Shown: positions 7,407 through 30,809 of the stretch, piece by piece | Position numbering within the stretch: position 1 is the stretch's first letter | Layout: every line of letters starts with the position of its first letter | DNA from: Gammaproteobacteria bacterium | GTDB taxonomy: Bacteria > Pseudomonadota > Gammaproteobacteria > JACKNK01 | Assembly: GCA_024234955.1 (NCBI GenBank) | Contig: JACKNK010000006.1 | Span: 204,782 to 268,781 of the forward strand | Reading direction: 5' to 3' | Length of the DNA: 64,000 bases | Translations under genes and position numbers: made by a program | The notes under the pieces: generated by a model | Told to the model about the DNA's origin: nothing | Database searches by the model: none | The model's input: the letters and a program-made list of their open reading frames with translations, nothing else

Positions 7407-8773
7407 TTCAGATCGGTCCCCGGGCTGGGCGTTGTCGGCGCGTTCTGCGGGATGCCGAGCAGACTTTGCGCGGCGTCACGCCCGTACAGAATGGCGTCTT
7501 CCATCGATGAATAATCCCACTTGCCGTATCGACCCGTGGAAAGGATGCCGTGTGCACGCAGAAATTCATGAATCGTCGCCGTGGCCTCAGCGTGATGCGC
7601 ATCGTAGATCACATAGGCATAGGGCATGCGCAACGGCCATTCCACGGCGATTTCGGATTCATCTTTCAGCCAGCCCATGTCTTTGAGCCCGGATATCGCG
7701 TCCGCACGCGCCTGCTCGGCATCCAGCGGGCGGTCCCGATTGTAGGACTGTTCCACCCAGACGCTGCTGTGACCGTCCGGTGCCATGCTGGGTGCAATGT
7801 TGCTGAAACAGCCGACGCGGTAGAACGGGTACTTCTCCTCCGGGACATACACCCAGTGACGCCCGCCGGTGTGGTTCGCCTTGATGCCCAGACACAGCGC
7901 CCAGACCGAACTCCAGGAAAGACGGTCGCAGGCCGCGCGCACCGGTTCGGGCAGGTCGGCGATCAAGGCGCACAGCACGGGCAGCGGCAAGGTGCTGATC
8001 AGGGTTTGATAGTCGGTTTCCAGGCCGGTATCGAAACCCACACGTCGATTCACCGCATCGATCCGCACCGCCTCGTGGGCATACTCGATGGGACCGGCAT
8101 GTCGAGCCCAGGCCTCGCTGAGAATCTGGATGCCGCCGTGGCGGGGATACTCAAAACGTGCGTTGTAGCCTGACGAGGCGTCGCGCAGGCCCAGCGCTCC
8201 GGCGACGACCTTGTCCAGCGGCGCTGGCGGCACGAATCGGTTCATCCAGTCCGTGGTCATGGCGGACGGCGGCACGCCCCAGAGTTTGGTGTTGTACGGA
8301 ATCATGAAATGGCGCGCGATCCCGTTGCCGACACTGTGACGAATCCAGGTTTCAAAATCGGGGGCGTCGCGCTCCGGGGTGCGTTCCGGGGCGCGGTCCT
8401 GGTCGCGCGCCGCGATATAGCCGAGCAGGCATTCATTCACCACGGGTAAAGGCAGGCCGTACAGATTGGTCTGGAACGGGTACGGCGTATACACGCGGTG
8501 CGAGTGGATCCAGGCATCTCGGGTAACGGTGGTCAGCTCGCCGGGCAGCCACTCGTTCACCTGCGCGGCGATCTTGGGGTCGCGGAAATGCAGAAAATGG
8601 CCGGTGTAATCGAAGCGGTAGGCGCCGTTCTGTTTGCTGCGCACCAAGCCCCCTGGCGTGGTCTCCTTTTCGAACAGGGCGACATTCGGGTGTTTGCCCC
8701 GCCGGAGGTGATAGGCAGCGCTCATCCCGGTCAGGCCCGCCCCCAATATCACGACGCGATCCGGGCGACTCAT
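7403..8773 (-). CDS. FAD-dependent oxidoreductase, UDP-galactopyranose mutase-like
   Basis: N-terminal Rossmann motif VVILGAGLTGMSAAYHL. RFDYTGHFLHF and IPYNTKLWG resemble the Glf motifs HKYGAHIFH and YTEKQWG. 456 aa; overlaps both neighbours. Confidence 0.55.
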   Translation of the reverse strand: MSRPDRVVILGAGLTGMSAAYHLRRGKHPNVALFEKETTPGGLVRSKQNGAYRFDYTGHFLHFRDPKIAAQVNEWLPGELTTVTRDAWIHSHRVYTPYPFQTNLYGLPLPVVNECLLGYIAARDQDRAPERTPERDAPDFETWIRHSVGNGIARHFMIPYNTKLWGVPPSAMTTDWMNRFVPPAPLDKVVAGALGLRDASSGYNARFEYPRHGGIQILSEAWARHAGPIEYAHEAVRIDAVNRRVGFDTGLETDYQTLISTLPLPVLCALIADLPEPVRAACDRLSWSSVWALCLGIKANHTGGRHWVYVPEEKYPFYRVGCFSNIAPSMAPDGHSSVWVEQSYNRDRPLDAEQARADAISGLKDMGWLKDESEIAVEWPLRMPYAYVIYDAHHAEATATIHEFLRAHGILSTGRYGKWDYSSMEDAILYGRDAAQSLLGIPQNAPTTPSPGTDLK

Positions 8774-21974: not shown

Positions 21975-22053
<79 letters not shown>

Positions 22054-22132: not shown

Positions 22133-22921
22133 ATGAGTCGCATCCAGCGGGTGGTGCAGATCACCGATACCCATCTGTTCTCCGATCCATCGCGTGCCCT
22201 CAAGGGCATCGTCACCGATGCCTCCTTGCGTGCGGTATTGGCGGCAGCGCACAACGATCTCGTCGGTGCGGATCTGTTGTTGCTGACGGGAGACCTGGCT
22301 CACGATGAGGTCGAAGCGACGTATCAGCGCCTCCGTGCGACGCTTGCAGCGCTCATTCCCGGACAATTGCCCGTCCGCGCCATTCCAGGGAACCATGACG
22401 ACCCCGCCTTGATGATTCGCCATTTCGGGCAAGCGGACAGCGTTGTCCTGGGCGATTGGTTGTGCCTATCGCTGGATTCCCATCGTGATGGACAGGTCGA
22501 AGGCACACTCCGCGCCTCCGAACTCCAACGCCTCGATCGGGAGCTGGCCGAAACGCGTGCCAGCCATGCCCTGATCGCCGTGCATCATCATCCGGTTGAT
22601 GTCGGTTCACTGTGGATGGACGGCATCGGTCTGAGCAATCATGCCGCGCTGTTTGAGGTGCTCAACCGTCACGACAAGGCCCGCGCGATCCTCAACGGGC
22701 ACATTCATCAGGAATTCGAGGGTGGGCGCGATGGCATTGCAGTTTACGGTACGCCATCGACCAACGTTCAGTTCCGCGCACGCAGCGATGAGCCTCAATT
22801 TGCCGATCTGGAGCCGGGGTACCGTCGCTTGGCCTTGTACCCGGATGGCCGCATCGACACCGAGGTGGTGCGTGTCCCCGGCGTGGTCTGCAACCTGAAC
22901 GACGAAGGGAGTTACGAGTGA
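22133..22921 (+). CDS. cpdA: 3',5'-cyclic-AMP phosphodiesterase CpdA (class III metallophosphoesterase)
   Basis: ITDTHLF, GDLAHD, GNHD and HHHP metallophosphoesterase motifs. 262 aa. Confidence 0.8.
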   Translation: MSRIQRVVQITDTHLFSDPSRALKGIVTDASLRAVLAAAHNDLVGADLLLLTGDLAHDEVEATYQRLRATLAALIPGQLPVRAIPGNHDDPALMIRHFGQADSVVLGDWLCLSLDSHRDGQVEGTLRASELQRLDRELAETRASHALIAVHHHPVDVGSLWMDGIGLSNHAALFEVLNRHDKARAILNGHIHQEFEGGRDGIAVYGTPSTNVQFRARSDEPQFADLEPGYRRLALYPDGRIDTEVVRVPGVVCNLNDEGSYE

Positions 22922-23763
22922 CCGCCGCACCGCGTTTTGCCACCATCAACGAAACCCTGGGGCTCGACGACGCGCAGCTCGGGCTAGCCGATCTTGCCTT
23001 GTTGCTGGCACGGGACGCCTATCCGGAGCTCGATGTTGCCCACTATTTGGCGCGTCTCGATGAGATGGCGATGGAAGCGCGCGCGAACCTGCCGGCGAAA
23101 GCGGACGTCTTCGTCACGCTTGCCGCACTCAATCGTTATCTGTTCACGGAACAAGGTTTCAAAGGCAATTTCGACGACTATTACGACCCGAGAAACAGCT
23201 ATCTCAACGAGGTTCTGGATCGCCGTACCGGCATCCCGATCACGCTATCTTTGGTCTATATCGAAGTCGGTCGTCGTCTGGGACTGTCCCTGGACGGGGT
23301 GTCCTTTCCCGGTCATTTCCTGGTGAAGTGTTCGGTGGACGGTGGCGACGTGGTTCTCGATCCCTACTCCGGCGGGGTCTCGCTGGGTACCGACGAACTC
23401 GAACACCGCCTCAGCGATGTGGTCGGCGAGAAGCACGCGGCTCGCATCAACCTCGCTGACGTATTGGGCGCCGCGCCCACGCGCGACATCCTGGTCCGCA
23501 TGCTGCATAACCTGAAGGCCGTTTATATGCGCGACGAGGAACTGCACAAAGCCCTGCAGATCAGCGGCCGTGTGCTGCAGCTCAAGCCCGGCAGCAGCGA
23601 CGATTTGCGCGATCGCGGCGTTCTGTATGCGGCTCTGGATTGCTTCCGGCCAGCGCTGGACGACCTGCGCCGCTACCTGAAACTACGTCCGAACGCTGCC
23701 GATGCCGATGACATCCGCGAGCGCGTGATCCAGTTGCAGGGCCGGGTTGCACAACTGCATTGA
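22918..23763 (+). CDS. SirB1-like protein (transglutaminase-like N-domain plus TPR C-domain)
   Basis: 281 aa. Overlaps the cpdA stop. Confidence 0.55.
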   Translation: MTAAPRFATINETLGLDDAQLGLADLALLLARDAYPELDVAHYLARLDEMAMEARANLPAKADVFVTLAALNRYLFTEQGFKGNFDDYYDPRNSYLNEVLDRRTGIPITLSLVYIEVGRRLGLSLDGVSFPGHFLVKCSVDGGDVVLDPYSGGVSLGTDELEHRLSDVVGEKHAARINLADVLGAAPTRDILVRMLHNLKAVYMRDEELHKALQISGRVLQLKPGSSDDLRDRGVLYAALDCFRPALDDLRRYLKLRPNAADADDIRERVIQLQGRVAQLH

Positions 23764-24416
23764 GCACCATGAACACGCCGCTCATCGTGCTGCTCATCGC
23801 CTGGTTGGCTTACTTCGCGCTGCATTCCCTGCTCGCCGGTCTGCCGATCAAACGCTGGGTGGCGACGCAACACGCCGCTTGGATGCCGGCGTACCGGCTC
23901 GTTTACAACACGGTTGCCGTGCTCGCGCTGCTGCCGGTGTTGTGGCTGAGCTATGCGATTGACGCCCCACCGTTATGGCAATGGCATGGATGGCAGGCTT
24001 GGGTGGCGAATGGCCTTGCGATGCTCGCCCTGCTGGGCTTTCTGTGGTCCACACGTTGGTACGACGGCAGTGAATTCCTCGGTCTGCGGCAATGGCGCGA
24101 GCGCGCATGCCGCGTCGAGGATCAGGAAAAACTGCATATCTCGCCGATGCATCGCTTCGTGCGTCACCCCTGGTACAGCCTCGGTCTGGTGCTGATCTGG
24201 ACGCGCGAACTCAACGCCCCGCTGTTGCTGGGTGCGATCGCTATCAGCCTCTATTTCGCGATCGGCTCCCGCCTGGAAGAGCGCAAGTTGATCTGTTACC
24301 ACGGCGATGCCTATCGTCAATATCGAGCGCGCGTTCCCGGGTTGATCCCGTTGCCGTGGCGCTGGCTGAGTGCCGCCGACGCCGAGAAACTCGTGAACAC
24401 CGACGCATCGGCGTAA
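23760..24416 (+). CDS. Membrane methyltransferase of the isoprenylcysteine carboxyl methyltransferase / PEMT superfamily
   Basis: 218 aa, 4-5 TM helices. HRFVRHPWYSLGLVLIW...LEERKLICYHGDAYRQY is the ICMT-type C-terminal motif. Confidence 0.6.
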   Translation: MSTMNTPLIVLLIAWLAYFALHSLLAGLPIKRWVATQHAAWMPAYRLVYNTVAVLALLPVLWLSYAIDAPPLWQWHGWQAWVANGLAMLALLGFLWSTRWYDGSEFLGLRQWRERACRVEDQEKLHISPMHRFVRHPWYSLGLVLIWTRELNAPLLLGAIAISLYFAIGSRLEERKLICYHGDAYRQYRARVPGLIPLPWRWLSAADAEKLVNTDASA

Positions 24417-24555
24417 CCAGGGCAAGCCGCCTGCGCGTGCCCGGGACGCACATTTCCCGCCAAACTTGTCCCGCTTGACCGGCTTGCCCACAATGCGGCG
24501 CATGTTCTTGCCCATCCCGTCACGATCCGCCCCTGCGCGCCGCTGAGGAACTCCG

Positions 24556-24753
24556 ATGTCCGACGCCACCTTCCGCGTTCAATCTCCCGCCGAAGCCTTC
24601 CAGGAATACACCGAGTCGGAAATTCGCCGTCTGCGCGAAACCGACGCCCAGTTCGACGAAGACTTCTTTCGCCGTGCGCAGACCCTGGTCGCCGGTCGTC
24701 TTCTGGTGGCACATGCGGAAATGGAAAGCGAAGTCGGGGAGGGCACGGCATGA
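24556..24753 (+). CDS. Small acidic hypothetical protein, translationally coupled to the downstream SMC-like ATPase
   Basis: 65 aa. GAGGAA RBS 8 nt upstream. Stop overlaps the next start (ATGA). Confidence 0.5.
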   Translation: MSDATFRVQSPAEAFQEYTESEIRRLRETDAQFDEDFFRRAQTLVAGRLLVAHAEMESEVGEGTA

Positions 24754-27050
24754 TCATTCGCGAATTTCATGCCGAGAACATCCTCAAATACCGGAGTCTC
24801 AAGCTCGAAAACATTCCCGAGCGCGGCCTGATCGGCATCTCCGGCCCCAATGAGGCCGGCAAGACCGCAATTGTCGAGGCCATCTGCCTGGCCCTGTTCG
24901 GGCGCACCTTCTCCTACGAACCCGAGGAGGTGCTCAAGACCATGAAATGGGGCGCGGCCAAGGCGAGCGCCGAACTCGTGTTCAGCGGCGCCGACGGCAA
25001 GCATTACCGGGTTGCGCGCTACCTCAACATCGAAGGCCATCACAGCGCCAGCCTGAGTCTCGTCGGGAGTGGCGATGCCATCGCCCAGGGCGCGCAGGCG
25101 GTGACCCGTGCGATCGAGGAACGGGTCGGTTTCAGCTTCGACCAATACGTCGAATCCTTCTATCTGGCGCAACGCGAAATCACCATGCCGCACGCCAGCA
25201 GCGGCATGGTGCGCGGCTTGCTTGGCATTGCCGAACTCGACCGCGTCGCCGATGAGCTGCAAGGCGAGGTCGATGCCGATCGTCGCCACATCGATGAACT
25301 GCAGGCATCGATCGAAGCCATCGACGATCAGCTTGGCACGCTCAATGTCGAGGAATCCGCACTGGCCGAGCTGCAGGCGGCGTTGTCGTCGTGCGGAGAT
25401 GACGCACGCGATGCGCAACGCCGGGTTGCGGTCGCCAGCGCCCGGCGCGCGCAGCTGGAAGAGCTCGGCAGCGATGTCGAGACCCAGGTCAACGGCATCC
25501 TCAGCAGCGATGTCGAGACCCGTTTCCGCCATTGGCAGGAACGTGCCGACCATCTTGGCGAGCAGGTCAGCACCCTTGAAGAGGCGTGTCTGGTGGCCGA
25601 ATCGGACCCGCCCGGAACCGCACCGGGGACCGACCTGATCGCCTGGATCGGTGGCCTGCGCGATCGGGTGGCCGCGTTTGCCGCAATCCGCGCACGGGCC
25701 GATGTTCATGCCGAGGAAGAAAAGCAGTGGCTGGGGCGCAAGCCGCTCTCGTCCGACACCGAAGCAGACCCCGAAGCCGAAGCTGACGTGGCTCCGGTCA
25801 GCGACCATGACGACAGTTATCCGGCACAACGTGCGCACATCGAACAGGAGCTTGCCGGTCTGCCCGGCAAACGTCGCGTGTTCCGCCTGCTGGCGTTTTT
25901 CGGATTGGTGATCGCGGTGGCGACGATTACGGTGCGCTGGTTGCTGGCGCCGGAAGTCGCGCTCCCGGAAGGCGAGCAGCTCGTCGCGCAACTGCGTGTG
26001 TGGTTCCCGAACTGGGACCCGCAAACCGTCGAAAGCCTGCTCGCCATGCGCTGGACTGCGGGCGGCGCGTTGACGATCGGATTGTTATCGATCCTGCGGG
26101 GCAGCGCCTTGTCGCGCCGTATCCGCCGGCTGAGATTTGAACGCGAACGACTGGATGCGCACGCGCTTGAAGCGCGGGAACACATCGACCTGATCGCCGA
26201 GATCGATGAACACCCGATGTCCAAGCAACTTGAAAGCCTGCGCGCCCTGCACGACCCGGACATCGACGACGCTCTGGATGCGTTCACCGAGGGCGACGGC
26301 AAGGCGCTGATCGATGCCGAGGCGCTGGCGGCCTGGCGCGAGCCGCTGGCCGACGATCGCGACATGTTCCGTGAAGACCTGGACACCCTGCTCGACACCC
26401 TCGGCAAGTCGGTCGCCGAAGCGCGTCATGGCGCCGACACGTCGGATCGTGCCCTGGCCGATGCCGAAACCGCCGTTGAGAACGAAGAGCGTCGCCGCGC
26501 CGAAGCCGAGGCCCTGAGCGAGCGTCAGCGCGGCTTGCGGGGGCAACTTCAGGAACCCCGCGAACGCATCAAGCTGCGCAAGCTCGGTCTCGATCAGATA
26601 CGCGGCACCTGTCGTCGCATCTACAACGACTTCAACGTGCAGATGCGCGACTACCTGGTGCGCATCGTGCCGCTATTTACCGAAGGCCGATACCGCCACC
26701 TCAAGATCGACGACGAATTCAAGGTGCAGGTGTTTTCCAACGACAAAAATGATTTCGTCGAATTGGAAGAACTCTCCAGCGGCACCCATCGCCAACTCGT
26801 CCTGGGCGTGCGCCTGGCGCTGTCGCAGGCCATGGTGGACGCGCAATCGCATGGCGCCCAGTCGATGATCCTCGATGAACCGTTCGCGTTCTTCGACCGC
26901 GAACGCATCCGGCAGACGCTCGAAACCTTGCCCACGGTCAGCGAAGAGATCAGCCAGATATGGGTGATCTCGCAGGAATTCGACGGCGCCAGCTTCGACC
27001 TGCATCTGGCCTGTCGCAGGGACAGCGACACCCTGACCGCCATAGGCTGA
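24750..27050 (+). CDS. SbcC/SMC-like ABC ATPase with a central transmembrane hairpin
   Basis: N-terminal Walker A GISGPNEAGKT in an SbcC-type head. Long heptad-rich segments. Two hydrophobic helices (VFRLLAFFGLVIAVATITVRWLL and GALTIGLLSILRG) near the middle. C-terminal signature LSSGTHRQL and Walker B MILDEPFAFFD. Confidence 0.75.
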   Translation: MIIREFHAENILKYRSLKLENIPERGLIGISGPNEAGKTAIVEAICLALFGRTFSYEPEEVLKTMKWGAAKASAELVFSGADGKHYRVARYLNIEGHHSASLSLVGSGDAIAQGAQAVTRAIEERVGFSFDQYVESFYLAQREITMPHASSGMVRGLLGIAELDRVADELQGEVDADRRHIDELQASIEAIDDQLGTLNVEESALAELQAALSSCGDDARDAQRRVAVASARRAQLEELGSDVETQVNGILSSDVETRFRHWQERADHLGEQVSTLEEACLVAESDPPGTAPGTDLIAWIGGLRDRVAAFAAIRARADVHAEEEKQWLGRKPLSSDTEADPEAEADVAPVSDHDDSYPAQRAHIEQELAGLPGKRRVFRLLAFFGLVIAVATITVRWLLAPEVALPEGEQLVAQLRVWFPNWDPQTVESLLAMRWTAGGALTIGLLSILRGSALSRRIRRLRFERERLDAHALEAREHIDLIAEIDEHPMSKQLESLRALHDPDIDDALDAFTEGDGKALIDAEALAAWREPLADDRDMFREDLDTLLDTLGKSVAEARHGADTSDRALADAETAVENEERRRAEAEALSERQRGLRGQLQEPRERIKLRKLGLDQIRGTCRRIYNDFNVQMRDYLVRIVPLFTEGRYRHLKIDDEFKVQVFSNDKNDFVELEELSSGTHRQLVLGVRLALSQAMVDAQSHGAQSMILDEPFAFFDRERIRQTLETLPTVSEEISQIWVISQEFDGASFDLHLACRRDSDTLTAIG

Positions 27051-27814: not shown

Positions 27815-28300
27815 TCAGGTCGTATCGCCAATCAGCCGCGATAGCATCGCGTCCACATCCGAGCCCCGGGGCGTTTGGTCCAACGGGGTCCAGGATTGAT
27901 CCGCCTCCAGCCGAAAACTACCGACGAATTCATGGGGCGGTCGGCTTCCCCATTCACGGGGTGACAACATCGACCAGAGCGTGCGGTCATCGTCGCGTCG
28001 ATACAGGTGGTAAACCTTCCCCGGGATACGTTTGAAGGCGCATTCGGCGCGATGCAGTTCCTGGTCCCGGCGCGCACCCTCCAGAATGCGCCGGGCCTCT
28101 TCCTGCAAGGCCTGCATCTGGTCGGCGATGACCCGCAGCTTGGCGTGCGTATGGGTCGCGACCGAGGCATCCGCGCCACTGATCTGGCGGGCGATGTCCA
28201 CCAGATCGGTCGCCGCCCCGAGTCGGCTGACTGGGTAAGGCGCACTGCGGGCATCGCCCTGATGGTTCGGGCCGGAATACTTGCTGGCGTCATCGGCCAT
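27815..28300 (-). CDS. Conserved hypothetical protein (possibly DUF2452-like)
   Basis: 161 aa. Last gene of the minus-strand operon 30809→27815. Confidence 0.45.
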   Translation of the reverse strand: MADDASKYSGPNHQGDARSAPYPVSRLGAATDLVDIARQISGADASVATHTHAKLRVIADQMQALQEEARRILEGARRDQELHRAECAFKRIPGKVYHLYRRDDDRTLWSMLSPREWGSRPPHEFVGSFRLEADQSWTPLDQTPRGSDVDAMLSRLIGDTT

Positions 28301-28309
28301 GTCGTTCGC

Positions 28310-28783
28310 TCACAGGTGTTCGTCGATACCGTGCGCCTTCAGGCCCCAGGCGAACAGCGAACTGACCCGCTTGTTGGCGGTGCGCAGGCGCTCGGCCAGG
28401 GTGTTGAGCAGGTCTTTGAGAACCGGATACCCGACTTCCGGATGGGCATCGAGGTACACGCGCAGGATGTCGCCGGGGATCACGCCCAGCTCGCAGTCGC
28501 TGATCGCGACCACGCTGCCACTGCGCGGTTTCAGGTCGAACAGGCACATTTCGCCAAACACCGTGCCCGGCCCAAGATCGCTGTATCCGGGGCGCAGACT
28601 GCGGTCGTCGTCGAGCGCGACTTCACCGACCACCCGTACCGTCCCGCTCAAGACCACGAACACATCGCACTGGCTGTCGCCTTCGTTGAAAACGTGTTCG
28701 TGCACCGTGCAAAGGCGCCGCTGCCACGCGTCACCTTCGGGAAAGTCGGGGGAGTCGAGCAGATTCTTGAGTGCGTTGGACAT
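28310..28783 (-). CDS. Stand-alone cyclic-nucleotide-binding (CAP-family) domain protein without a DNA-binding domain
   Basis: 157 aa. …GTVFGEMCLFDLKPRSGSVVAISDCEL… is the cNMP-binding beta-roll with the phosphate-binding cassette (GEM…R.A). No HTH. Confidence 0.7.
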   Translation of the reverse strand: MSNALKNLLDSPDFPEGDAWQRRLCTVHEHVFNEGDSQCDVFVVLSGTVRVVGEVALDDDRSLRPGYSDLGPGTVFGEMCLFDLKPRSGSVVAISDCELGVIPGDILRVYLDAHPEVGYPVLKDLLNTLAERLRTANKRVSSLFAWGLKAHGIDEHL

Positions 28784-28788
28784 GAGAT

Positions 28789-29625
28789 CTATCCGGGGTG
28801 ATCGGTGGGTTTGTGACCGGTGGCAACAAAGACGGCGGCGAAGCCCCAGGCTTCGGGATCGTCGCTGATCTGACGGATCACGGCTTCTTCCGCCTGACCG
28901 AGCTGCTTCTGTTCGTCGCTGAGCTGTTCGAGTTTGAAGCCGGTGGTGATGTCGAGAAAGTTGCGCATGCCGAGGTCGGCACTGGTCACGGTATGCACGA
29001 ACACGCCAACCTGATCGAACCCGTTGCGCGCCAGCAGGGTGCCAAGCTTGCGCCCGACATGGCGGTCACCTCCCCGTGCCTGCTGAGCCTGGGCGGCACG
29101 TTGCGTGAACGAGGTGAAGGTTTCCGGTTCCGGGAACAGCGTCAGCCAATCGTCATCGATGTCGAGAATCGCAAGAATGCCGCCCGGCTTTAGTGTGCGC
29201 AGAGCCGCTTCGAAGGCGCGTTCCGGGTGTTCGAGATGCTGAAACAGGAAACGTGCGTAAATGAAATCGAACTGCGCCTCGCCCAGATCGAGTTCATAGA
29301 CATTGGCCTGCTGGAAACGGAGATTCGTCAGCCCGGCGGCGTCCGCCGCCGCCTGCGCTTCCTTGAGCAGATCGGGACTCAGGTCAACACCCGTGACCCG
29401 ACCGTTACCCACCATGCGCGCGATCTCGCAACTGACGATCCCGGGGCCGCAGGCCATGTCCAGGACATCCATGCCTTCCCGCAATCCGGCCCGACTGAGC
29501 AACTGACGTTCCAGCGCGGTGGCAATCGCCGCCTGCTGCTTCAGACGATCGAGCTCCTTCTGGTTCTCATCGAAGCTGCCAAAGGCGTAGGAACCCGCAG
29601 CGGTATGGGTATTGCTGGTGCTCAT
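28789..29625 (-). CDS. Class I SAM-dependent methyltransferase
   Basis: VLDMACGPGIVS is motif I. 278 aa. ATGA overlap with the upstream gene. Confidence 0.75.
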   Translation of the reverse strand: MSTSNTHTAAGSYAFGSFDENQKELDRLKQQAAIATALERQLLSRAGLREGMDVLDMACGPGIVSCEIARMVGNGRVTGVDLSPDLLKEAQAAADAAGLTNLRFQQANVYELDLGEAQFDFIYARFLFQHLEHPERAFEAALRTLKPGGILAILDIDDDWLTLFPEPETFTSFTQRAAQAQQARGGDRHVGRKLGTLLARNGFDQVGVFVHTVTSADLGMRNFLDITTGFKLEQLSDEQKQLGQAEEAVIRQISDDPEAWGFAAVFVATGHKPTDHPG

Positions 29626-30809
29626 TCGTTTTCGGTTTCCTCAAGTTGTTGCAGGGTATCGAGCCAGTTCTGGGTGGTGCCGCGCAGGCGCTCGCAGAGA
29701 ATCACCGACAGATTCAGCAGCACCGGGGCAACGATTTCCGGCATCTTTTTCAAGGCGCGCTTGATGAAGGACTGGGTCAGGATCAGCAGTTCCATATCGG
29801 TATTGGCCACCACCTGGGCGGTGCGCGGCGTCTTGGCGACGAACGCGATCTCGCCGAACACCTGACCAGGACCGACCACCGCCAGGGAATGGCGTTTGCC
29901 ATCCGCATCCCGCCCCCAGACCTCGGCGACGCCATCGAGCACGACGAACATCTCGTTACCGATGTCCCCCGGACGGATGATGATCTCACCCGCCTTGCAG
30001 GGCAGCACCGTACCGGAATCCAGAAAGGCCCGCGCCTGCACTTCGTCCAGGCCTTTGAGCAGGCCGATGCCTTCGCGCGGATCGACATGCAGGCGGTCTT
30101 CCATCAAGGCCCAGAACCCATCGGTATCGACCAGGCGCTTGTTGATATGGACGGCATGCGCCGGGAATTCCGCGATAAACCATGCGGTCCCGGTCGCATC
30201 CGCCGGCAGTTTGCGGGCCTCGCGCCAGAACGGGGAGCGCACCGCCCTCATGTGTTCGATGTCCTCGGCCATGAACACCAGCGGGACGTGGTAGCCGGCA
30301 TCCTTGTCCATGAAGCCATCGGCGTAACGGCGATACCCGAGCTGCTCGTAAAACTCGACCAGGGACGGGGTGCAATTGCAGAAATCGAAACGCACGCCGT
30401 TTTCGCGGGCGAAGCGGAATATGGCCGCGAGCAACGCGGCGAGAACCGTGGACCCGCGCCAGTCCGGCGCCACCATCAGGCGAGAGGTCATGGACAGGGA
30501 TTTCGCGGGAAATTCGGCCCAATGTTCGAGCTGATAAATCCGGTTCCAGTACGCATCGAAGCCGGTCTCACCCGCGAGATTGATGCGCACCGTGGCCACA
30601 ATCTCTTCCCCGGCGGCGGCATAAAGCAGGGTCGCTTCATCGTCCAACGGGTCGTAAAGTCGCTTGCCCGCATGGTCGGCGTAGCTCGGGCGTTTGCCCA
30701 TTTCTTCTACGTAAACCGCATAGCGAAACCGATAAATACGCTCCCGCTCCGCTTCCGTAGCGGCAACCTGAATCTCAGGCCGGACGAGATTATCGATGGA
30801 TTCGTTCAC
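29622..30809 (-). CDS. Autoinducer-synthase-like N-acyl amino acid synthase (GNAT) fused to a C-terminal cNMP-binding domain
   Basis: N-terminal half RIYRFRYAVYVEEMGKRP…FCNCTPSLVEFYEQLGYRRY resembles LuxI/FeeM-type acyltransferases (exosortase-associated N-acyl amino acid synthase family). C-terminal half …PGQVFGEIAFVAKTPRTAQVVANTDMELLIL… is a cNMP-binding domain. 395 aa. Confidence 0.6.
   Translation of the reverse strand: MNESIDNLVRPEIQVAATEAERERIYRFRYAVYVEEMGKRPSYADHAGKRLYDPLDDEATLLYAAAGEEIVATVRINLAGETGFDAYWNRIYQLEHWAEFPAKSLSMTSRLMVAPDWRGSTVLAALLAAIFRFARENGVRFDFCNCTPSLVEFYEQLGYRRYADGFMDKDAGYHVPLVFMAEDIEHMRAVRSPFWREARKLPADATGTAWFIAEFPAHAVHINKRLVDTDGFWALMEDRLHVDPREGIGLLKGLDEVQARAFLDSGTVLPCKAGEIIIRPGDIGNEMFVVLDGVAEVWGRDADGKRHSLAVVGPGQVFGEIAFVAKTPRTAQVVANTDMELLILTQSFIKRALKKMPEIVAPVLLNLSVILCERLRGTTQNWLDTLQQLEETENE

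Follow-up and report, generated by a model that had tools for sequence, protein, structure and literature searches.

The question raised by this locus is what a Rad50-like ATPase does when the tip of its coiled-coil arms appears to lie in a membrane, and why such an enzyme is encoded together with a protein of only 65 residues. The genes concerned lie in a 64,000-nucleotide stretch of a gammaproteobacterial genome (assembly GCA_024234955.1, contig JACKNK010000006.1, positions 204,782 to 268,781 of the forward strand), which is referred to here as the window and numbered from its first nucleotide. Within it, an open reading frame (ORF) for a 65-residue protein (24556..24753, + strand) is followed by an ORF for a 766-residue ATP-binding cassette (ABC) ATPase of Rad50/SbcE-like type (24750..27050, + strand, stop codon included). 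Together they make up a genuine module of two genes, widely conserved and so far uncharacterised, which is a variant of the Rad50/SbcE-like ATPases and not a categorically new system. Our preferred reading, put forward tentatively, is that its product would be a membrane-anchored, nuclease-free relative of the SbcE type, acting as an ATP-gated clamp or tether that holds DNA at the inner membrane without cutting it.

The ATPase head

The initial annotation, made from the sequence alone, had described a split head of the SbcC/Rad50 type, and its motifs are confirmed. The N-terminal half-head (residues 1-160; 24750..25229, + strand), supported by its match to Pfam AAA_23 and by alignment of the family profile with Rad50, carries the Walker A motif GPNEAGKT (residues 32-39, nucleotides 24843-24866) and the Q-loop motif SFYLAQR, which contains Q141. 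The C-terminal half-head (residues 645-766; 26682..27047, + strand), placed from its motifs and the family alignment, contains the signature LSSGT (residues 675-679, nucleotides 26772-26786) and the Walker B/D-loop sequence ILDEPFAFFD (residues 707-716, nucleotides 26868-26897). About 300 relatives were retrieved from a set of 5.8 billion proteins, and in an alignment of 195 family sequences GPNEAGKT, Q141, LSSGT, D709-E710 and D716 are invariant or nearly so and align with Rad50; conservation by column is strongest in the head. Pfam assigns the 766-residue protein to AAA_23 (E 5e-13), whilst SbcC_Walker_B, SMC_N (over the head region only) and AAA_27 remain below their cutoffs, the last reaching 20.1 bits against a cutoff of 22 over residues 15-51 only, in the P-loop. 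Sequence matches in the structural database (PDB) are confined to Rad50 heads, and the family profile detects M. jannaschii Rad50 (E 2.5e-41, with 101 bits in the N-lobe) and E. coli SbcC (E 7e-14). In a model predicted by AlphaFold2 from an alignment of 64 sequences (mean predicted local distance difference test score, pLDDT, 86.3), residues 1-160 and 645-766 build a Rad50-like head from which long helical arms extend; when this model was compared with the PDB using Foldseek, Rad50 (7zr1, 5dny) was the best match, followed by Smc5/6, MukB, SbcC, LmuB and JetC.

The protein could, on this view, be an ordinary SbcC/Rad50 orthologue, with its nuclease encoded elsewhere and its hydrophobic helices buried in the coiled coil. 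Relatives carry the labels 'AAA family ATPase', 'ATPase' or 'hypothetical', and in IMG 'exonuclease SbcC'; moreover, a Metallophos gene lies three genes upstream of the module in the window. However, although archaeal Rad50 models head the NCBIfam list for the ATPase, the best of them, PRK01156, scores 74.4 bits against a cutoff of 847, and TIGR00618 (sbcc) scores 38.7 bits against 478.5, far under these curated equivalog cutoffs. The 766-residue sequence contains no CxxC zinc hook, the transmembrane (TM) character of its apex is family-wide, and the Metallophos protein is CpdA-like, with synteny that extends to only three loci. Nor does the family resemble a true Rad50 of the hook type that is flanked by HerA and Mre11: on pFDU301A of Priestia megaterium (L084, 1810-7412) a HerA-like protein, a Mre11-like Metallophos protein and a Rad50 with the hook sequence CPVC are encoded in one cluster. 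Taken together, these observations leave hardly any credence for an ordinary orthologue. In agreement with the initial annotation, which could assign the pair to no named system, no curated family claims the ATPase and no partner of the SbcD type is linked to it. The Priestia cluster, a canonical contrast that lies on a 1.08-Mb replicon and is unannotated in the PLSDB gene table, had itself been considered as a YhaN match and was rejected once recognised as the hook-type HerA-Mre11-Rad50 arrangement.

One departure from the Rad50 head concerns the H-loop. Gln742 (nucleotides 26973-26975) pairs with the first histidine of the ITHH H-loop of M. jannaschii Rad50, and at least 95% of the 195 family sequences have glutamine here in place of the switch histidine found in Rad50/SbcC. 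As judged from the residue exchange, hydrolysis may be slow, with the head acting as a switch. Two cysteines of the cytoplasmic head are also retained, Cys46 (nucleotides 24885-24887) in 90-95% of the family and Cys755 (nucleotides 27012-27014) in at least 95%.

Coiled-coil arms and a transmembrane apex

Long coiled-coil arms had been proposed to join the two head halves to the apex, and the AlphaFold2 model places long helices there. The N-terminal arm (residues 161-370; 25230..25859, + strand) comprises helices 160-198, 204-251, 259-283 and 294-327 and ends in an acidic disordered linker (residues 328-356) and a short helix (357-369). The C-terminal arm (residues 451-644; 26100..26681, + strand) is formed by helices 427-487 and 523-643, the second of which, 120 residues long, extends to the head. 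Multiplying the predicted helix lengths by the textbook rise of 0.148 nm per residue gives modelled arms of roughly 25 nm, or about 13 nm in short forms of the protein; the family falls into two length classes, of ~620-640 and 750-780 residues, and the distal part of the N-terminal arm is missing from the shorter. Near the head, the C-terminal arm bears the conserved basic residues R610, R622, R633 and R638. Further out, 55-70 residues from the head, a conserved patch (E573/E579/R582/L589; nucleotides 26466-26516) is confined to one coiled-coil helix, where the small protein or some other partner might dock.

The apex is occupied by two hydrophobic segments. The first, TM1 (approximately residues 377-399; 25878..25946, + strand), is preceded by GKRR, has a Kyte-Doolittle peak of 2.35 and coincides with AlphaFold2 helix 371-399. 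It is followed by a predicted periplasmic loop (approximately residues 400-431; 25947..26042, + strand), in which AlphaFold2 places a short amphipathic helix (406-418), and by TM2 (approximately residues 432-450; 26043..26099, + strand), which has a peak of 1.39, is followed by SRRIRRLR and falls within AlphaFold2 helix 427-487. Across the family the pattern is regular. In each of 195 non-identical homologues the two longest stretches free of charged residues were determined; the median length is 23 residues for either, and both are central in 180 of the proteins. The loop between the segments has a median of 32 residues, and the median count of lysine plus arginine is seven in the cytoplasmic flanks versus one in the loop. 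Because the flanks are rich in these residues and the loop is poor in them, the segments fit a hairpin with both the N- and C-terminal sides in the cytoplasm. By column conservation, the TM segments retain hydrophobicity and not residue identity. The proposal that a TM hairpin stands in place of a hook or hinge is thus upheld by charge-free runs and a positive-inside pattern that hold across 195-203 homologues, and the helices do not appear as buried coiled-coil core. Neither a CxxC motif nor an SMC hinge domain is present in the ATPase, whose apex consists of TM1, loop and TM2. Overall, the architecture of head, arms and TM hairpin is well supported. In common with Rad50 and SbcC, which provide its closest sequence and fold matches in the PDB, the ATPase has antiparallel coiled-coil arms attached to a head of the same fold and with the same motifs; it differs from them in having a TM hairpin at the apex where they have a CxxC zinc hook, and in having no linked nuclease where they have a Mre11 or SbcD partner.

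The two TM segments are joined to their arms in different ways. TM2 runs into the C-terminal arm as one unbroken AlphaFold2 helix (427-487), whereas TM1 connects to the N-terminal arm through the disordered linker. This asymmetry favours a role in mechanotransmission or signalling, of the kind known from the type VII ABC systems MacB, FtsEX and LolCDE, in which the ATP cycle would move TM2 and the loop of about 30 residues onto a partner in the envelope, or the loop would sense the envelope and gate the head. The amphipathic helix of the loop and its semi-conserved columns (P403 in 74% of sequences, L411 and L415 in 68%, W422 in 52%) point in the same direction. Nevertheless, the loop is short, shows no more than moderate conservation and is reduced to a tight turn in YhaN-type relatives, a gene for a periplasmic or envelope partner is not conserved, and the head belongs to the Rad50 class and not to the transporter class, which together make such a role quite improbable.

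The small partner protein

The small ORF is preceded by a Shine-Dalgarno-like GAGGAA, 5 nucleotides 5' of its ATG (24545..24550, + strand), and ends in a coupling junction (24738..24753, + strand) that comprises a second Shine-Dalgarno-like element, GGAGG (24738-24742), and ATGA (24750-24753), the latter overlapping the stop codon of the small ORF with the start codon of the ATPase; both elements were read from the sequence. The overlapping, translationally coupled acidic ORF of the initial annotation is recovered in full, and its product has a net charge of -7. Family members have a median charge of -4 and 75% of them are acidic. AlphaFold2 predicts a helix-loop-helix (residues 11-29 and 35-62; pLDDT 87.6), and the core of the family is described by the motif EF..y..aE..R.R.....FDE..Y..A..LV...L.

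Conservation of the small ORF in orthologous loci had been set in advance as a test, and the ORF proved to be kept across phyla. In the first three loci inspected, whose neighbours differ, an ORF of 60-74 residues with a common motif precedes the ATPase. A hidden Markov model (HMM) of the partner subsequently found a match directly upstream and on the same strand, mostly with a 4-nucleotide overlap, in 79 of 84 loci that span at least five phyla-level groups and lie in unrelated neighbourhoods. As this family HMM matches upstream of the ATPase so consistently, the small ORF is not a chance reading frame. Of the five exceptions, L056 and L077 lie at contig edges, L058 probably carries a frameshift, and L070 and L073 belong to a divergent clade. 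In the latter two loci, a gene for a 130-residue Hsp15/S4-like protein lies upstream of the ATPase gene (7538-7930 and 7554-7946, respectively), with no partner ORF.

A HMMER search of 1.84 billion representative proteins, clustered at 50% identity, identified 307 members of the partner family at E <=0.001, and the best 150 of these are all 50-137 residues in length and without fusion to other domains. The partner has no match in Pfam, and comparisons with the PDB gave nothing significant either by structure (Foldseek, best E 5.5) or by sequence profile (best E 0.28). It forms a stand-alone family. The possibility that it is a remnant of the Rad50-binding helix-loop-helix of a lost Mre11 or YhaO nuclease was considered and set aside, as it found no support in an hhalign test of low sensitivity.

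Helical elements that pack on the neck or the heads are familiar from related machines, among them the helix-loop-helix by which Mre11 binds Rad50 and the helices at the N-terminus of a kleisin. The structural maintenance of chromosomes (SMC)-kleisin complexes (Smc-ScpAB, MukBEF and the Wadjet system JetABC) and LmuB of Lamassu resemble the present module in their ABC head and long antiparallel coiled coil, as well as in their constitutive dimerisation element at the apex and their dedicated small accessory subunits at the neck or head. SMC proteins proper, however, possess a hinge and a winged-helix kleisin, whereas the partner here is a far smaller two-helix protein of 65 residues. Also unlike these systems, the module lacks KITE, effector and nuclease genes and lies outside defence islands and mobile elements.

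Relationship to SbcE/YhaN

The closest parallel to the TM apex is offered by SbcE/YhaN. A part in transformation and in the repair of double-strand breaks is known only for the protein of Bacillus subtilis, which interacts with the nuclease SbcF/YhaO, has a central domain that is conserved, hydrophobic and insoluble, and in competent cells accumulates at the poles (PMC2811018). The central domain is not termed transmembrane in that study, and our literature search found no paper that does so. A search for membrane-anchored families of Rad50/SMC-like proteins, which did not cover the ABC ATPase classification of Krishnan et al. 2020, likewise returned only the SbcE paper. IMG labels one fragment belonging to the present family 'YhaN'.

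Two comparators, P0355 and P0356, were obtained from a search seeded with the divergent clade. They are regarded as YhaN-type because they pass Pfam AAA_27 (31.4 and 35.5 bits, cutoff 22), because a gene lies upstream as in yhaO-yhaN and because their centre holds a TM hairpin. In their loci (L093 and L094) a gene for a protein of 361 or 406 residues lies directly upstream; the product preceding P0355 has a weak Metallophos match, whilst that preceding P0356 has no Pfam record and its gene overlaps that of P0356 by 4 nucleotides. The centre of both ATPases is a charge-free stretch of 46-50 residues flanked by lysine and arginine, a predicted TM hairpin with a tight turn.

The two halves of the comparison give opposite answers. 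The C-terminal halves of P0355 and P0356 reach 102.5 and 90.7 bits with the family profile, whereas those of hook-type Rad50/SbcC proteins reach 41-45 bits and that of M. jannaschii Rad50 reaches 42 bits. On the N-terminal heads the order is reversed, with 7-10 bits for the YhaN-type proteins and 62-101 bits for Rad50. An hhalign comparison of the family with the YhaN-type C-terminal half gave a probability of 98.1% and 27% identity over 179 columns, and the two share the motif variants SxGT..Q in the signature and F..(F/Y)D in the D-loop. At the H-loop position the YhaN-type proteins carry glutamine (P0355) or lysine (P0356). The family thus has the look of a similarity mosaic, with a Rad50-like N-terminal head and an SbcE-type C-terminal half and apex; these scores, together with the likeness of the apex, indicate that the apex and C-terminal half are shared with the SbcE type.

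Despite this, the family lies outside YhaN/SbcE, since it stays below the AAA_27 cutoff and has the gene of the 65-residue hairpin, not yhaO, upstream. Like SbcE/YhaN (COG4717, AAA_27), its members are long-armed ABC ATPases of the SMC-like type whose centre is hydrophobic and takes the place of hook or hinge, and their partner gene lies directly upstream, where a 4-nucleotide overlap is possible in both cases. The differences are nonetheless several. The N-terminal head of SbcE/YhaN is of the AAA_27 type, that of the present family Rad50/AAA_23-like; the SbcE/YhaN partner is a Mre11-like phosphoesterase of 360-410 residues, to which the 65-residue hairpin has no sequence similarity; the apex loop is a tight turn there and a periplasmic loop of about 32 residues here; and the total length is ~880-960 residues in SbcE/YhaN against 620-780 residues, with shorter arms, in this family. 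SbcE/YhaN, furthermore, has Firmicute hosts, whereas the hosts of the present family are Gram-negative lineages.

Hosts and genomic context of the family

A scan with one genome per species found 515 loci encoding relatives of the ATPase. The best 80 are all in metagenome-assembled genomes, and their hosts are Gammaproteobacteria (Chromatiales, Ectothiorhodospiraceae and others), Candidatus Binatia, Phycisphaerae/Planctomycetota, Magnetococcales and Desulfobacterota. More members occur in chemosynthetic symbionts, including Thiodiazotropha, Candidatus Sedimenticola and endosymbionts of tubeworms and of the scaly snail. The divergent ATPase clade mentioned above (L070, L073) has low GC content and 25% identity. 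In a separate subclade (P0006 and P0007, 881-884 residues) a DUF7662 domain is fused behind the head, at the C-terminus.

No third gene is conserved alongside the two: in an all-against-all clustering of neighbours from 84 loci, the largest common cluster besides the module itself occurs in 26 loci and represents a Binatia-specific synteny, which is stable over about 20 Binatia genomes. A census of 125 proteins flanking 34 diverse loci yielded 157 Pfam families, none of which occurs more than three times, and these are metabolic and housekeeping in character; there is no recurrent Metallophos protein among these linked products, a result that concerns linked genes and not whole genomes. Upstream of the small ORF in 75 loci, patterns for sigma-54, sigma-E and sigma-32 are no more frequent than in shuffled sequence, and promoter-like sites were not found there; terminator-like sites do not exceed shuffled expectation, and the only Rfam match is a tRNA. 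The two genes form a self-contained operon or module.

The arrangement might instead belong to an anti-phage or anti-plasmid sensor-effector, in which the head would sense foreign DNA ends and the TM hairpins would open or cluster to depolarise the membrane in an abortive infection. The signal would run along the rigid helix of the C-terminal arm and TM2, whose continuity in the AlphaFold2 model accords with such a role, and the small acidic protein would keep the system off in the manner of an antitoxin; the small gene does come first and overlaps the second by 4 nucleotides, as in toxin-antitoxin pairs. PADLOC detects weak similarity of the ATPase to LmuB, mad3, DndD and PbeC (best E 1e-14), and the module is found in unrelated neighbourhoods across lineages. 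However, the co-encoded effector or modification genes of Lamassu, Dnd or Pbe type were not found among the 125 neighbours, where defence-model matches are few: the families with two members comprise a mad2 match and sigma-54 activators that cross-match RtcR, and those with one are mostly methyltransferase (PglX/MTase) models. The neighbours are those of housekeeping and metabolism, the Binatia synteny is stable and the GC content typical. Conservation of hydrophobicity alone in the TM segments is what would be expected of an anchor and not of a pore, and no DNA-binding fold typical of antitoxins was detected in the small protein by Pfam or AlphaFold2. Finally, no family member was found in 72,556 plasmids, 50,697 phage records or 2.9 million viral contigs of IMG/VR, collections that gave generic similarity at the level of the head only. 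We therefore doubt a sensor-effector role; the family is chromosomal and apparently vertically inherited.

A possible mechanism at the inner membrane

A tether, sensor or scaffold of DNA appears a better description than a cutter, because the module has no nuclease of its own. By analogy with the workings of Rad50, SbcC and SMC proteins, from which the following steps are drawn, two ATPase chains would pair through their TM hairpins, so that the hairpin would replace the zinc hook or hinge as a module for both dimerisation and anchoring. According to the title of one study, the Rad50 hook and the SMC hinge are reportedly interchangeable as dimerisation modules. The heads would be suspended about 25 nm beneath the inner membrane, where binding of ATP would engage them and hydrolysis, probably slow, would release them. 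Engaged heads, together with the basic head-proximal coiled coils, would clamp some polymer in the cytoplasm, double-stranded DNA or DNA ends being the most likely, and thereby keep it at the membrane. As a regulatory or bridging subunit, the small hairpin protein, which is acidic in most members, would pack on the head-proximal coiled coil or on the heads. The complex would in this way tether, sense or scaffold DNA instead of cutting it. The likeness of the C-terminal half to SbcE/YhaN, which handles DNA in B. subtilis, and the chromosomal location of the family speak for this reading.

Several observations weigh against this reading and account for the tentative terms in which it is put. With median charges of -4 and -8 in its N- and C-terminal halves, the head has a net acidic character, and of R94, K95, K99, K108, K109 and K115, which we take to be the DNA contacts of T. 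maritima Rad50 (the numbering fits the alignment, and the residues are said to have been described by Rojowska et al. in 2014), only one of the six positions is basic in the family consensus. TM2 of the window protein is only weakly hydrophobic, although its counterparts in most homologues have Kyte-Doolittle peaks of 2.0-2.8. Among the 84 loci and the 125 neighbours no linked nuclease, helicase or recombination gene recurs, and LexA-box-like sites upstream of the small ORF (75 loci) are not above the level of shuffled sequence. The partner, moreover, showed no similarity to the C-termini of two YhaO-like proteins and one Mre11-like protein in the low-sensitivity hhalign comparison.

Part of the same evidence speaks for a different substrate, namely the membrane itself. 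The ABC heads might engage in trans across two membrane regions and so tether, bend or fuse them, with the small protein as regulator. Mitofusin/Fzo1, atlastin and bacterial dynamin-like proteins are built of an NTPase head on a helical stalk, followed by a TM hairpin and one more helix, and their heads dimerise in a nucleotide-driven manner. The order of head, stalk, TM hairpin and second helical segment in the ATPase resembles that of mitofusin/Fzo1 and, more broadly, of atlastin and the bacterial dynamin-like proteins; the acidic head, in which most of the basic DNA-contact residues of Rad50 are not kept, and the lack of linked genes for DNA metabolism are also in keeping with a membrane substrate. 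Some of the hosts (Chromatiales, Ectothiorhodospiraceae, Magnetococcales and Planctomycetota) belong to groups known for internal membranes, and in seven loci of the window subclade a gene for an ICMT/PEMT-like membrane methyltransferase is close by. Conversely, many hosts are not known for internal membranes, such as Thiodiazotropha, Sedimenticola and the symbionts of tubeworms and snails, and no gene for lipid or membrane biogenesis is conserved family-wide. The likeness to mitofusin is one of topology only and is taken from general background: the proteins of that group have a dynamin-type GTPase head, with no homology to the one described here. All characterised relatives of the head (Rad50, SbcC, SbcE, SMC and LmuB) act on DNA (PMC2811018 among other sources). 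A membrane-remodelling role is thus unlikely, and the ATP-gated DNA clamp or tether remains the preferred interpretation.

The module in its window

The initial annotation had placed the two genes among housekeeping genes at typical GC content, and this holds, with rsmE and an ICMT-like gene as neighbours and a GC content of 0.63-0.66 in the module versus 0.61-0.66 in its flanks. The gene order in the window is octaprenyl-diphosphate synthase, tRNA-Pro, CpdA-like phosphodiesterase, SirB1-like protein, ICMT/MddA-like membrane methyltransferase, the two-gene module and rsmE. The tRNA-Pro gene (CGG; 21975..22051, + strand) lies between the octaprenyl-diphosphate synthase and CpdA-like genes. The genes for the CpdA-like, SirB1-like (Transglut_core2 and TPR_9) and ICMT/MddA-like proteins (22133-24416, + strand) overlap successively by 4 nucleotides, which suggests that the three constitute one operon. 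In the seven loci of the window subclade referred to above (the window itself, L001, L004-L007 and L035), the ICMT-like gene lies 0.25-1.6 kb from the module.

The CpdA-like cAMP phosphodiesterase (22133..22921, + strand) is the product of the Metallophos gene noted earlier. It was considered as a possible SbcD and rejected on its resemblance to CpdA (185 bits to PRK11148, under the cutoff of 225). Cyclic nucleotides recur as a theme near the module, as two further proteins have a cyclic nucleotide monophosphate (cNMP)-binding function or domain: a 157-residue cNMP-binding protein (28310..28783, - strand) and a 395-residue protein (29622..30809, - strand) with a C-terminal cNMP-binding domain and an N-terminal part with a faint acyltransferase-like NCBIfam match. 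Directly downstream of rsmE, and convergent with it, lies a gene for a DUF2452 protein (27815..28300, - strand; E 5e-53) that has no NCBIfam name.

Implications

SMC and Rad50 proteins are viewed as soluble DNA machines whose arms join in a hinge or a zinc hook. With arms that meet inside the membrane, the module raises the questions of how ATP-driven clamping of DNA might be used at the envelope, what a Rad50-like head does without a nuclease and what a partner of 65 residues contributes. It also provides the poorly understood SbcE/YhaN of Firmicutes with a Gram-negative counterpart, which has the same apex, another half of the head and another partner. For specialists, the notable features are the occurrence of a transmembrane apex across phyla, the nuclease-free composition and the dedicated 65-residue subunit, and a system of only two genes is of a size that suits direct reconstitution.

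It is possible, if rather uncertain, that the family represents an undescribed class of SMC/Rad50-like machine: a nuclease-free, membrane-embedded and ATP-gated clamp with a new type of small subunit, vertically inherited, that couples DNA to the inner membrane. Were this so, the DNA coupled in this manner would be the chromosome, incoming DNA or broken ends, and the carriers would be several, mostly uncultured, Gram-negative lineages. Together with SbcE/YhaN, the TM hairpin would then constitute a third solution to the apex of SMC proteins, beside the hinge and the zinc hook.

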